A stretch of 64,000 nt of DNA, taken from Eledone cirrhosa. Its lineage: Eukaryota. The stretch spans positions 124,620,001 through 124,684,000 of the forward strand of contig OZ024745.1 of the NCBI GenBank assembly GCA_964016885.1. The letters are read 5' to 3'. The translations under genes were made by a program, and so were the position numbers. The notes under the pieces are model-generated. The model was not told where the DNA came from and ran no database searches. It worked only from the letters and a program-made list of their open reading frames with translations. How positions within the stretch are numbered: position 1 is the stretch's first letter; the number at the start of each line of letters is the position of its first letter. Of the stretch, positions 2,100 to 64,000 are shown one piece after another.

Positions 2100-2217
2100 T
2101 TATATACTCGCACACACACACAGACATGTATATATTTGTATATATGTATATATATATATAAATATGCATAAGGAAAGTATATACTTTCAGACGTTCAATC
2201 ATCTGGCAGGAAGGTAT

Positions 2218-2260
2218 ACGGTGCTGACGATAGATAATAAGCTTGAAACTAGTACATCGT
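2218..2260 (+). ncRNA. Minimal type I hammerhead ribozyme in a PLE-type terminus (family also at 33990-34375)
   Basis: ACGGTG-CTGACGA-(weak stem II)-GAAA-CTAG-TA-CATCGT; stem I has 6 bp and stem III is palindromic. Confidence 0.7.
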
Positions 2261-2536
2261 TCCTTTGCCAGTGTTGAACAAAAGGGCAACGATGGTTGCT
2301 AAACAATGTACGGCTTAATTCGGGATGTTTGTTTACAAACAAACCGAGCATTATAATAAATGTTTGGTAAATCCATACGTACACATATATATATGTGTGC
2401 ATGTATGTATATATATACGAACTACTGTACGTCTGTATACATATATTTATGTACGTATACATACTTATATTTAAATAACAGCCGTACTAAGAGTGAGAAA
2501 TGAAATTTCATTTCATTTTTTCCATTTATATATATA

Positions 2537-2885
2537 TACGATATTAACAAATGGAAACTATATTTATAAAACCATATTTATTTCATTATAGATATTTCAA
2601 GGACACCATACTATCCGGGAACTTCCAACAGTAATGGTTGCATTCGTTAAGGGTATGTCAATATTTATTTATAAAACTGCTCTATATTATATTTTATCTG
2701 ATGAAAGCACACCATAATTTAACTTGGTGTCCTTGAAATATGTATAATGAAATAAATATGGTTTTATAAATATAGTTTCCATTTGTTAATATCGTATTTT
2801 TACGCCAATTATTTGTTGAGTGCTTTATATCAGTTATAAAAATATTTGCTTGTTGTATCCCAACAATTTAAATAGAACTTTTACA
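2537..2885 (+). mobile_element. PLE-type 3' terminus with inverted 5' segment, flanked by (TA)n
   Basis: 2537-2609 is the reverse complement of about 2725-2797; contains an HHR; related fragment at 51430-51545. Confidence 0.75.
2690..2754 (+). ncRNA. Type I hammerhead ribozyme
   Basis: TATTTTAT-CTGATGA-AAG.ACACCA..TGGTGT.CTT-GAAA-TATGTA-TA-ATGAAATA; 8-bp stem I. Confidence 0.8.
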
Positions 2886-3595
2886 TATATATATACATAT
2901 ATATATATATATATATACATATATATATATATATATATATATATATATATATATATATATATATATATATATATATATATATACATATATAAATATATTT
3001 ATATATATATATATATATTCAAAGAGAAAGAGAGGGCGAGGGGGGGGGGGTCTGTGTATGTGTTTGTGTGCGTGGAGGCAGAATGTCTGTTGACAAGACA
3101 ATGAGAGTGGCTTCATGCCAATCGGTCGATTAACTTTTAAATGATTGATACTAATCTAATTCCACTTTAGAGATATTACACTAGAAAAGTGTCTTCTATC
3201 GGCTCTCTGCTTTGTTGACTAACAACAGTGTTAGTTTGTATGGCTACATCCTCAGTCACAGAAGAAAGTCTATGTCAAACTCTGTATGTTAGAAAATGTT
3301 TCATACTTCCTTATCATCTATCTAGAGGTTAAAATAACTCTCCTTGGATTTACAAAAATAACTACCGTACCATTTTAAAGTTTGCAAACAGCTATCTCGT
3401 AAACGAGGTTTTCAGTAAAAAAATATAAATAATTGTTTCTACTTTTGGCACACGACCAGAAATTACTCCAGTGTAATACTTATGCTTTGCTTTATTTTCA
3501 AATATACATGTAATAGTTTAGAAATTTAGCAAGAACATCACTACCATGACTGAATCTTAACCATCTACTATGTCAGGGTATGTCATGCATCATCT

Positions 3596-3662
3596 TATTT
3601 TATCTGATGAGGACGTACTGTTGAAGATAGCTCAGTACCTCTGAAATATGTATAATAAAATA
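3596..3662 (+). ncRNA. Type I hammerhead ribozyme
   Basis: TATTTTAT-CTGATGA-..GTACTG..CAGTAC..-GAAA-TATGTA-TA-ATAAAATA; perfect 8-bp stem I. Confidence 0.8.
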
Positions 3663-3741
3663 TACTTGATCACACGAATGTCTATTTTTGTTAATATTTT
3701 TAATTAATATATATATATATATATATATATATATATATATA

Positions 3742-5036
3742 TAACGAAGGAAATGTGGTAAGGAACCAGGTGGACCATAACGCACCAAAGTACTCAATAC
3801 TTAGGGTAGTAGAGTGGGTAATAGGAACCAGTAAGACCCCGACGGCTGAGCTCAAGCCGTTTCGACGGCTAATTCTGGACTAAATGAAAATTTATCCTGG
3901 TATTTAAATAGCCGAGCTTCTCAAGGGGTAATTCCATATATGGTCAAAGTGATTGTCACAAGGATTGGTCACAAGTTAGTAGTAATTATGTGATGGCAAA
4001 TTAGTGGGGGAAGGGGTAGCTAAACCTGCCAGTAGGAGTAAAAGGGGAGGGGTGGAGTAGACCCATTCATGCGTTGGTAGTGCCGGCTACAGCTGGGCGT
4101 GAGGTCAAAGAAGATACTAGGGAGGGGGAGGGGGAGGAAGTCGAAATGGTAAGTAAAACAATGAAGGGTAAAAATATATTAAAAAAAAAAAAATACTGAG
4201 AGTGATAAAAAGCGAATAAATGTAAAGAAAAAGATAAGCAATTTCTACGACCTAAGTCTCTCGCTATTGCTAGGCTAAATAAATAAATAAATAAATAAAT
4301 AAATAAATAAAAAATAATAATAAATAAATAAACTAGGTGGGACGGAATAAGAAGGGACCCTTTTAAGAGGTATAAGTACGTATATCATACGGTGACGGGT
4401 CAACAAAGGGGGCGGGGACAAAATACTAAAGAAACTACCACGAAATAATTAATAAAGGTTTCTACCCCAGACACAAGGCCAGCAACCACCCAGTGCAGAA
4501 AAGTAAACTAGTACGAAATAATAATTCAGAGTCCCGAAAAAAATATACTAATGCTAACTCTAAGGGTACCGTCACACTACAAAAGTTCTTATACAAGCTA
4601 CATGAAAGTTCGTACGAAGTAAAAGTAAAATACGGAAAATTAATTCAGAATCCCCCCCCCCCCCCCGCCCAAAAGAAAAAATATATTTTTACCCTTCATT
4701 GTTCTACTTACCGTTTCGACTTCCTCCCCTCCCCCTCCCTAGTACCTTCTTTGACCGCACCCCCAGCTGTAGCCGGCACTATCAACGCATGAATGGGTAT
4801 ACTCCACCCCTCCCCTTTTTCTCCTACTGGCGGGTTTAGCTACCCCTTTCCCCACTAATTTGCTATCACAGAATTACTACTAACTTGTGACCAATCCTTG
4901 TGACAATCACTTTGACCATATATGGAATTACCCTTGAGAAGCTCGGTTATTTAAATACCAGGATAAATGTTCATTTAGTCCAGAATTACCCGTCGAAACG
5001 GCTTGAGCTCATCCGTCGGGGTCTTACTGGTTCCTA
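3742..5036. mobile_element. PLE-type element family D, inverted pair (about 3820-4180 vs 4680-5035) around a 500-bp spacer, between (TA)n tracts
   Basis: Arms are reverse complements and each has a variant HHR; same family at 28158, 55191 and 56731. Confidence 0.8.
3836..3929 (-). ncRNA. Type I hammerhead ribozyme, U3-A8 core variant
   Basis: ACCCC-TTGAGAA-..CGGCTA...TAGCCG..-GAAA-CGGCT(TGAGCTC)AGCCG-TC-GGGGT; all three stems pair; slightly mutated copy at 4930-5022 (+). Confidence 0.75.
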
Positions 5037-61435: not shown

Positions 61436-61769
61436 TTTTTATTATTGTACATAATGCTACTGTTAATGTTACAAGTTTAGTTTAGGTATACACCTCTGTT
61501 GCTCTTGTATATGCTACTGTTGTTTTTATTATTTTTAATGTCGTTGTTGTTACTCATGAAATGATACCCATAATGATTATGATGATGCTGTGGAAAGCGT
61601 GACTTGAAACCATTGTTATAGAATTGCTAGGCCTTCAGCATCCGACAAATTCAATAAAAAATATTATAGCTTACAGAGATTGTGAGAAACTGACAGTACT
61701 GTGGTTGATGCATACATACCTGGATACATGCATACAAACATGCTCACACACAAACACACACATACATAT

Positions 61770-62525
61770 ACTTACATACATACATACATACATACAAACA
61801 TACATACATAATACATACATACATAATACATGCATACATACATATACATACACACATACATACCTAATACTTATATACATACATATATATATATATATAT
61901 ATATATACATATATATATATATATATATATATATATATATATATATATATATATATATATATATATATATATATATATATATATATATATATTATATGTA
62001 TGTATATATATATATATATATATATATATATATATATATATATATATATATATATATATATATATATATATTATATGTATATTTATTAAAATAGCAGATT
62101 AAAGTTTAAACAAAGAATCGCTATATATATATATATATATATTATATTATTATATATATATATATATATATATATATATATATATATATATATATAGGAA
62201 CCAGTAATATATATATATATGTATATACATACATACATATGTATATATAAATATATATATATATTATATATATATATATATATATATATATATACATACA
62301 TACATATATATATATATATATATATATGTGTATACATATATACACATTTAAATATATATATATATATATATATATATATATACACACACACACATATATA
62401 TATATATATATATATATTAAATGTAGGAACTCAAAATAGTTTCTTACAACAAAATAGCTCTAAGAAAGTTATATATATATATATATATATATATATATAT
62501 ATATATATATATATATATATATATA
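61770..62525. repeat. Long compound (CATA)n/(TA)n microsatellite with tiny PLE-terminus remnants (62085-62121, 62195-62206)
   Basis: Seen directly. Confidence 0.9.
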
Positions 62526-62854
62526 ATTACACAGACACCGACACAGACATACTGTATATACATTGGTTTATTGAGAAATAGTTACGCAGATATATAGATT
62601 AATGGTTAGGAATGTTGAGGGGCAAACAGAGACAGTTGCAGAAATAACCATGGCGTATCACTGAAAAACGTTAACATGTTATGCATGAAAATCATATTTG
62701 AAACTACTGTCATCTGTTAATAACGTTTATGTATTTTGCTGCCATACATATACATGTATATATGTATGTATATGTATATATATATATAATTATATATATA
62801 TATATATATATATATATATATATATATATATATATATATATATATATATATATA

Positions 62855-63060
62855 TAAAGAAACAGAGATGAAATCGAAAATCAACTGGAGTCTTATTTTT
62901 TTTTAAAATATATATAATGATTCGCAGTTCTTCTGCTTTTCAAAAGGTGAGTTGAGATGGAGCGTCTGTGGTTTTTCTCACATCTGAGTTCTCAGATAAA
63001 CAAATAAGACTCCAGTTGGATTTTCGATTTCATCTCTTTTTCTTTATACTTTCACTCGTG
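62855..63060. mobile_element. Family E rearranged inverted pair
   Basis: Matches 27930-28060 in both orientations. Confidence 0.7.
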
Positions 63061-63230
63061 TATATATATATATTTATGTAATAAACCACATAAGGCAATT
63101 ATTTCATTTACCAGTGGTTTCTTAAAAGCAAAAAAATTTTGCTTTCAATCATCAGAATGAAAAGATCCTGGTGTATTTATATATATATATATATATATAT
63201 ATATATATATATATATATATATATATATAT

Positions 63231-63505
63231 AGTGTGTATTTTGCAATACACTGTATGCTTAACTAAAAGCATTTCGAAGACCTTACGCTATTGTTTTAGA
63301 GTAGTGACAGTCTCACTTACTTTAAATTTTCAGCAAACAGGGGAGATAAAGCTGTTTGCTGAAAATTTAAAGTAAGTGAGACTGTCACTACGCTAAAACA
63401 TTAGCCTAAGGTCTTCTAAATGCTTTTAATTAAGCATTAAGTGTATTGAAAAATACACTATATATACATTCATATATATTTCGCTATTTCAGCGCACCAA
63501 TTCTA
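63231..63505. mobile_element. Family F fold-back (centre about 63345)
   Basis: Matches 15812-15925 and 16530-16685. Confidence 0.8.
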
Positions 63506-64000
63506 ATATATATATATATATATATATATATATATATATCCAAAATTAAGATTATATGTATATATATATATAAGTATAAAGAAGATTAATTAAATTATAA
63601 GGTATCTATTTTTGAAGTTCTAGTTAACTTTATTTAGTTACCTACCTAGCTATGTGTGCTTACACACTTGTAAAAATTATCCCCCGTGATTGTTTCATAT
63701 GTTTATTTATATGCTAATCAAATTCTAGTTGTTATATATATATATATATATATATATATATATATATATATATATATATATATATATATATATACATTCT
63801 ATCTGAATGTATTTGTTTGTCTACCTGTTTCTGTATATAGCTTTTCGAAGTACACATATTACATACGTTGATTTGTAGATGTAGAGATAGTTTGAAAGAT
63901 ATATCTATGTATGCACATACAATTATTTCTTAACTTCCTTTACCAAAATGAATGAATATATATGCATGTTTCAATTATTTTAAATTCCCGTACAGTATAG

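Follow-up and report, generated by a model that had tools for sequence, protein, structure and literature searches.

A 64-kb window of the Eledone cirrhosa genome (assembly GCA_964016885.1, contig OZ024745.1, positions 124,620,001 to 124,684,000; "the window" throughout means this whole stretch) carries many predicted type I hammerhead ribozymes, located in the 3' pseudo-long terminal repeat (pseudo-LTR) ends of 5'-truncated Penelope-like elements (PLEs) inserted among (TA)n microsatellites (Table 1). The window has a GC content of 34% and holds 100 (TA)n tracts with n of at least 6, in a genome of 3.0 Gb. TA content is 4.8%, compared to 4.2% in 59 evenly spaced 10-kb stretches.

An initial annotation had placed 20 hammerhead motifs in the window. 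We scanned for the pattern stem I - CUGANGA - stem II - GAAA - stem III - UH - stem I, using as a null 100 shuffles of 250-bp blocks with dinucleotides kept, and found 14 strict-core motifs at a score of at least 10 against a shuffle mean of 0.12 (maximum 2), so the annotated motifs are present and far exceed chance. A match at 35387 was discarded as a false positive sitting within a copy of a short interspersed nuclear element (SINE). Fifteen of the 20 annotated sites are complete: 13 pass the strict scan with scores of at least 9.5 (marked in Table 1), and two on the minus strand (3924 and 28020) have a UUGANAA core, in which the 3-8 pair is U3-A8. All 15 fit the core C3-A9 (with U3-A8 in the latter two), G12-A14, A15.1-U16.1, H17 and stems I-III, with just two contiguous stem I pairs in each of the minus-strand cores at 43453 and 55503. 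Four further sites are weak or decayed, namely 5498, which has a core but a 2-bp stem I and a score of 7.3, and 14698, 18381 and 40293, which are decayed members of families intact in other copies. The last, 24166, is non-canonical; it is hammerhead-shaped, and its family core CCGUCGA is found in 8 of the 9 other copies shown. Absent from the annotation were motifs at 63155-, 4934+ and 22689-, three U3-A8 motifs of family M (15961-, 16170+ and 16480+), two U4A motifs of family N (11762- and 12616+) and many half-hammerheads; many of the window's motifs are decayed or half copies of this kind. The palindromic stem III noted in the initial annotation is common but not general, as AGAACU, ACCACUGGU and a 4-bp hairpin also occur. 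An Rfam scan of the window gave no hammerhead family among the 150 of 200 matches listed, all of them microsatellite-driven and miRNA-like.

The described density of this community held up, but it is not special to the window. In a genome sample of 590 kb spread over 19 large contigs we found 41 strict matches against 1.5 in shuffles, corresponding to 67 per Mb genome-wide (bootstrap 42-96) and an extrapolated total of ~2.0x10^5 motifs (1.2-2.9x10^5), both for the strict core only. The window is ~3x richer than this average, with 0.4% of resampled 64-kb sets reaching 13 motifs when regional clustering is ignored, and the window-derived families, a set biased to the window, occupy 23% of it and 6% of the sample. 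We give no genome count for U3-A8 cores because their excess in the sample came mostly from one satellite (L055, 14 of 18 matches at a score of at least 12). Published counts are ~2,000-9,000 minimal hammerheads per genome (PMC4209133) and up to 120,000 for axolotl retrozymes (PMC7229834); the ~2x10^5 motifs here, obtained with another descriptor, lie above any count in the literature consulted.

Three annotated sites are indeed joined to remnants of PLE open reading frames (ORFs), at 16992-18180, 26214-26879 and 43736-44390. Elsewhere in the genome, family A1 retains intact frames of 1051-1217 amino acids with a reverse transcriptase (RT), a CX4CxxC linker (CTNRKCIIC) and, at the C-terminus, a GIY-YIG endonuclease (EN). 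The 1217-amino-acid frame has YVDD and VVY..YIG motifs, with two Cys between VVY and YIG and two His downstream (CCHH type), and the 3' tail matches the ORF start exactly. The GIY-YIG piece at 43904-44215 returned 28,437 first-look genome candidates, of which the 150 scored were ~95% identical, and some copies lie in frames of more than 1000 amino acids. Its Pfam GIY-YIG match (E 0.009) fell below the cut-off, and a Pfam search of the full frames and a PDB sequence search of the long frames found nothing; Atlas neighbours of the frames carry GIY-YIG/RVT_1/HTH_animal/DUF8422 at 0.96-0.99. By their linker and CCHH motifs, A1 and A2 classify as Neptune/Nematis-type PLEs, with which they share the C-terminal GIY-YIG, partial tandems, an inverted 5'-truncated copy and a tail at one end. 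A1 departs from this type in the two stem I pairs of its hammerhead and in an in-frame Asn-rich insert of ~170 amino acids N-terminal to its RT (L021:4842-8492); Adineta Penelopes have similar inserts at other positions (PMC3846280).

Upstream of families L, H, N, B5 and F are ORFs bearing motifs of the Hydra clade, which is defined by RW(K/R), DKT, a CxCX5C linker, CxxC and CxH in the EN, and no CCHH (Craig et al. 2021, PMC8557442). We read SDKT in the L, H and N frames and RWR in the N frame, the RW region lying outside the L and H frames read. The linker is CSCRKPEAC in L, followed by CGLC and CPH, and CNCPDRSIC in H, followed by CNLC and CKH; CxCX5C linkers also occur in N, B5 and F. On these motifs L, H, N and B5 fall in the Hydra clade, as F probably does, and they match the reported elements in units of 2.5-3.3 kb, canonical hammerheads and (TA)n insertion. 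That report describes few families, whereas here a single query, the family L remnant at 16992-18180, drew 40,154 candidate genome matches, and the hammerheads include fixed variants, U3-A8 in H and U4A in N. The Naiad clade, which has its GIY-YIG at the N-terminus and lacks a canonical hammerhead, was rejected, since the EN is C-terminal in all frames read and hammerheads are present. RT and GIY-YIG share a single ORF in A1, A2, L, H, N, B5 and F, and the PLE hallmarks of pseudo-LTR partial tandems (spacings of 4122 in A1, 3285 in N and 2495/2584 in L), 5' truncation, inverted copy and tail were all found. In the loci read, J, B1-B4, D, E, G, I and K showed no connection to an ORF, and these families may be non-autonomous or just heavily truncated; a candidate ORF link of G proved to be a separate insertion, and the copies in a candidate tandem of J are split by a TA tract and flank. 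PLE hammerheads adjoining TA are ordinary, mostly known biology and the elements further members of known clades: pseudo-LTR hammerheads, TA preference, U3-A8 cores and inverted copies have all been published (PMC8557442, PMC4209133).

As annotated, most of the hammerheads lie upstream of (TA)n. The predicted cut site is within 300 nt upstream of a tract with n of at least 5 in 13 of 15 window matches (range 18-255 nt; null mean 4.4, maximum 10) and in 34 of 38 matches of the genome sample (null mean 11.9, maximum 20), where the upstream side gave 18 of 38 for comparison. Several PLE lineages do end at these tracts: among the 565 family ends that fall at either fixed end site, 424 have a tract with n of at least 5 within 10 nt downstream, against 3 of 63 ends of a SINE-like family without TA preference. 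Most ends without TA are internal tandem units, and the end sites carry 3-5 nt of TA-like homology. The end counts leave out 25 loci that were identical to the window, overlapped or had been fetched twice; also left out are the L and B4 references, whose sequence extended into simple repeats.

In every family, 3' ends occur at two fixed sites, termed long and short, that are ~23-139 nt apart. We defined a two-armed insertion as a head-to-head pair whose two 3' ends both lie in TA and whose arms are not separated by a long TA tract, and found that 119 of 120 such insertions in 11 families combine one long with one short end. The rule held in 96 of the 97 cases where the search had not picked the long end (p ~6e-28 at 0.5); a first pass that included duplicates gave 95 of 96. 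In 7 of 13 A1 insertions (one more is uncertain) it is the short-ended arm that extends further 5', by 1.5-2.4 kb and without the tail in L004, L014, L024 and L028, and the short arm is also the longer one in four clear N and three B1 cases. A short-ended arm that is longer yet tail-less indicates that neither arm is a copy of the other as they stand, and that both need an RNA template.

The ribozyme core is fixed family by family, being CUGANGA in most, UUGANAA in H, G and M, and CAGAAGA (U4A) in 27 of 32 copies of N. Pairing of positions 3 and 8, as C3-G8 or U3-A8, is retained in 24 of 27 H copies, 17 of 22 G copies and nearly all copies of C, D and B1; other combinations (G3-C8, A3-U8, mispairs) did not clearly exceed shuffles in the window. 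Because N and K deviate from the invariant U4/A6, we file them as hammerhead-like variants, and neither U4A nor CCGUCGA appears among the minimal PLE hammerheads described in the accessible text of Cervera and de la Pena 2014 (PMC4209133). The other motifs resemble those hammerheads in being type I with a short palindromic helix III, in occurring as several families per genome and as opposite-strand pairs 100-700 bp apart, and in their covariant U3-A8. Mismatches at U10.1-U11.1 in families L and N are already known in hammerheads (PMC3088659). Further U3-A8 hammerhead families were seen off the window (L050:2380-3054, L081:3025-3104, L080:9442), one with a 595-bp spacing. Separately, family H mini-palindromes, at the three window positions in Table 1 and 14 other loci, stop at one hotspot in hammerhead stem II, ~40 nt upstream of the predicted cut site, leaving half-hammerheads.

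Family C is non-coding, and family M appears to be. Family C has a 483-bp unit (the spacing was seen 33 times) with a longest stop-free stretch of 81 amino acids, in arrays of up to ~3.5 units per arm, and family M has a tandem unit of ~310 bp, with a 310-bp spacing seen 3 times. Both have a GC content of 34-40% and one type I hammerhead per unit, and their predicted circular monomers fold better than shuffles (z -3.1 for C and -4.3 for M). In these tandem units, each with its hammerhead, and in the self-paired predicted circle they resemble metazoan non-LTR retrozymes (Cervera and de la Pena 2020, PMC7229834; bioRxiv 10.64898/2026.07.22.740005), the C unit being slightly above the 150-450 bp quoted for these. 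Whereas the retrozyme papers infer PLE mobilisation from co-occurrence and pseudo-LTR similarity (PMC7229834; bioRxiv 10.64898/2026.07.22.740005), C and M here bear a PLE integration signature themselves, consisting of insertion at TA, inverted arms and a pair of fixed 3' ends, of which each arm has one. With units 97-99% identical, C appears to be a young retrozyme bearing this signature.

Where at least two units of one C insertion could be compared, 60 variants were present in all units, 9 in a subset and 206 in a single unit. Eleven of the 60 are private to one insertion and mostly non-CpG, five of them spanning both arms, and the cut site shows indels in 0 of 97 units. Because shared variants are mostly common to all units and the cut site lacks indels, we somewhat favor a passage of family C through a monomer, likely a hammerhead-made circle. 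Two observations point the other way: the cut site shows no clear excess of 5' truncations (4 of 61 lie within 5 nt of it, where 1.5 are expected), and in L167 two variants link the inner unit of one arm with that of the other, a pattern that fits a linear multimer template or conversion and not a circle.

Together, our results are best explained, we think probably correctly, by PLE hammerheads at (TA)n combined with dual priming of two-armed insertions. The GIY-YIG endonuclease would nick the self-complementary TA tract on both strands, and from each nicked strand reverse transcription would be primed at a separate fixed site of the element's RNA. The two complementary DNAs (cDNAs) would stop early and then become linked in head-to-head orientation, in many cases where short homologies or palindromes occur. 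As the hammerhead lies ~20-290 nt from the start sites, even tiny truncated copies would retain one or two motifs, which would account for their density, and each insertion would split its TA tract, leaving new targets and so generating nested clusters. The non-coding units C and M would likely borrow the PLE enzymes, with a hammerhead-defined monomer, probably a circle, as the C template, copied over more than one turn. The simplest reading, and a fairly probable one, is that each strand primes once, each at a different start site, given the long+short rule, the longer short arms and the two-site, two-strand extension measured in vitro, where both strands are cut and extended by a Poseidon PLE, which begins copying at two RNA sites on either side of the tail (PMC11167929). 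That system, Anolis Poseidon PAc (Frangieh et al. 2024), shares the two start sites and an AT-rich target; it shows no strand preference for the start site and no homology at initiation, whereas each insertion here uses each site once and ends at TA-like words (PMC11167929). A stronger version, in which a dimeric RT-endonuclease acts on both (TA)n strands by obligatorily asymmetric double priming, tail and inversion arise in one event and the same machine copies retrozyme C circles by rolling circle, seems to us an even call.

Several observations count against dual priming or against a role for the ribozyme within it. One insertion, L080, pairs two short ends. Near-perfect palindromes with arms that stop at one spot make up 17 of 25 two-armed H insertions, and fold-back synthesis, in which a cDNA primed at the long site folds back and the endonuclease resolves it at the internal TA-like short site, would give these too. 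Fold-back accounts equally for the long+short rule, places short ends at TA-like words and combines published readings, self-priming and EN-mediated resolution (PMC3846280; PMC8557442). It would need later deletions to explain the longer short arms of young A1 and of N and B1, and such deletions at the palindrome centre could indeed have shortened a long arm; together with the two RNA start sites bounding the tail in vitro (PMC11167929), this makes fold-back unlikely in our view. A 3' tail of TA made by the element itself, as in some LINEs (long interspersed nuclear elements), would agree with TA following almost every 3' end, but internal tandem copies of both end sites run on without TA, 7 of 10 single-arm C insertions carry TA at the 5' junction too (excluding L124, L125, L215, L221 and L225, which have unresolved ends), and TA targeting is reported for Hydra and Neptune (PMC8557442). 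We therefore read (TA)n, from filled sites, as the insertion target and hold an element-made tail to be highly improbable.

It is also possible, although we rather doubt it, that the hammerheads now serve only as protein-binding structures or are carried along inertly, with cleavage playing no part in mobilisation. Young families have spread with a 2-bp stem I (A1), U4A (N) or CCGUCGA (K); single motifs adopt a three-stem hammerhead fold in just 1 of 11 cases (z +1.2 to -2.6); and in vitro, cleavage is dispensable and initiation proceeds without homology (PMC11167929). Weak monomer folding is nonetheless expected for dimer- or protein-dependent motifs (PMC4209133, PMC11167929), C3-G8 or U3-A8 pairing is retained family by family with no comparable excess of other combinations, and the C haplotypes suggest a monomer stage. 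For the coding families, inert hammerheads are compatible with dual priming at (TA)n. AT-rich false matches do arise, as in the SINE copy and the L055 satellite, but the excess over shuffles and the genome-wide recurrence of the same families argue against chance, and arms with fixed unequal ends that diverge by up to several percent argue against palindromes made by assembly; for most sites these explanations are already refuted, and overall we consider them negligible.

How PLE tails and inverted copies arise (PMC8557442) and which enzyme moves animal retrozymes (PMC7229834) are described as open. In the literature searched, with subscription journals outside its coverage, we found neither a long+short count nor a twin-priming model for PLEs, and no report of a U4A core or of PLE-type junctions mapped for a retrozyme. 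What this analysis adds is a strict rule for how ends pair, PLE junctions around a retrozyme, the number of motifs and their variant cores. If the stronger version of dual priming holds, a genome with ~200,000 hammerheads and active variant cores (U4A) would be a natural record of it. That long and short ends pair almost without exception, in Hydra, Neptune-type and non-coding families alike, provides the existing in vitro PLE system with a sharp prediction, and the variant cores offer a natural set for ribozyme assays.

Table 1. Element ends, insertions and repeats in the window. HHR, hammerhead ribozyme (position of core, strand); "strict", passes the strict scan; a dot marks no single strand.
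Feature	Position	Strand	Notes
Family J end	2170..2383	+	type I HHR 2224+ (strict), stem III ACUAGU; no ORF link seen
Family B1 two-armed insertion between TA tracts	2536..2884	short arm -, long arm +	HHR 2698+ (strict)
Family B2 end	3540..3706	+	HHR 3604+ (strict)
Family H (Hydra) two-armed	3744..5037	long arm - 3744-4679, short arm + 4680-5037	U3-A8 HHR 3924-, 4934+
Family A2 two-armed mini-insertion	5056..5273	.	3' half of HHR only
Family I end	5436..5615	+	minimal HHR 5498 (2-bp stem I), AATAAA, then TA
Family B5 arm	10260..10770	-	HHR 10370- (strict); Hydra ORF upstream in other copies
Family N (Hydra) two-armed	11607..12685	.	CAGAAGA (U4A) cores 11762-, 12616+
Family B5 long arm	12925..13524	+	HHR 13324+ (strict), TA at end
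Decayed family F-like end	14645..14800	-	3' half of HHR intact
Family M tandem unit (~310 bp) and inverted arm	15791..16686	.	U3-A8 HHR 15961-, 16170+, 16480+
Family L Hydra-clade remnant	16992..18518	+	broken RT and EN frames; decayed HHR 18381; TA at end
Family G end	22559..22714	-	U3-A8 HHR 22689-
Family K end	24070..24255	+	hammerhead-like fold, CCGUCGA core 24155; internal deletion in copy
Family N two-armed mini-insertion	25850..26141	.	core decayed
Family A2 Neptune/Nematis-type remnant (GIY-YIG region)	26214..27345	+	HHR 27096+ (strict)
Family G end	27870..28059	-	U3-A8 HHR 28020-, stem III ACCGGU
Family H palindromic mini-insertions	28159..28352; 55190-55383; 56729-56929	.	half-hammerheads only
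Family E end	32909..33038	+	HHR 32911+ (strict)
Family E decayed two-armed copy	51148-51338		
Family A1 two-armed mini-insertion	33074..33224	.	too short for HHR
Family C 483-bp retrozyme-like, 1.8 units	34436..35293	+	HHR 34657+, 35140+ (both strict); TA both sides
Family F end	40240..40445	+	HHR 40293, stem I damaged; Hydra-type linker upstream in another copy
Family D end between TA tracts	42686..42897	-	HHR 42787- (strict)
Family A1 Neptune/Nematis-type remnant	43173..44390	-	GIY-YIG 43904-44215, HHR 43453- (strict), tail = ORF start, TA end
Family A-type end	55454..55560	-	HHR 55503- (strict)
Family B3 palindromic insertion	56430..56630	.	HHR 56522+ (strict)
Family B4 end	63073..63177	-	HHR 63155-
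Family M palindromic mini-insertion	63232..63504	.	downstream of HHR
SINE-like family copies	775-858, 1985-2103, 8140-8523, 14280-14554, 22984-23195, 35315-35699, 38661-38860, 39743-39896, 49590-49699, 54247-54490, 61065-61446		

Other repeats share the window with the PLEs. The SINE-like family is very abundant, ~190 bp long and often tandem, and an old inverted piece of its tail lies within the family H 3' region (~4450-4510). A second SINE-like family is present at 14121-14237, 24637-24851 and 56179-56389, with a weak tRNA match at 14169-14226. Broken RT/endonuclease frames at 57233-58498 (-), 59923-60390 (-), 8641-8946 (-) and 48546-49115 (+) we take by motif to be LINE-like and of non-PLE type; Pfam gave nothing significant on these frames of the window. 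Chimeras of family G and family H sequence occur in L189 and at 28369-28468 of the window, which suggests template switching between families. At a locus present twice (L170, L171), a copy of family D lies directly next to a gag-like CCHC frame that probably belongs to an LTR retrotransposon. A further repeat family at 40791-41760 and 15120-15487 includes a direct duplication of 412 bp that is interrupted by an (ATAC)n tract. Finally, 10260-13524 is a nested structure in which B5 arms surround an inverted pair (10982-11104/12734-12856), itself placed around TA tracts and a two-armed N insertion.

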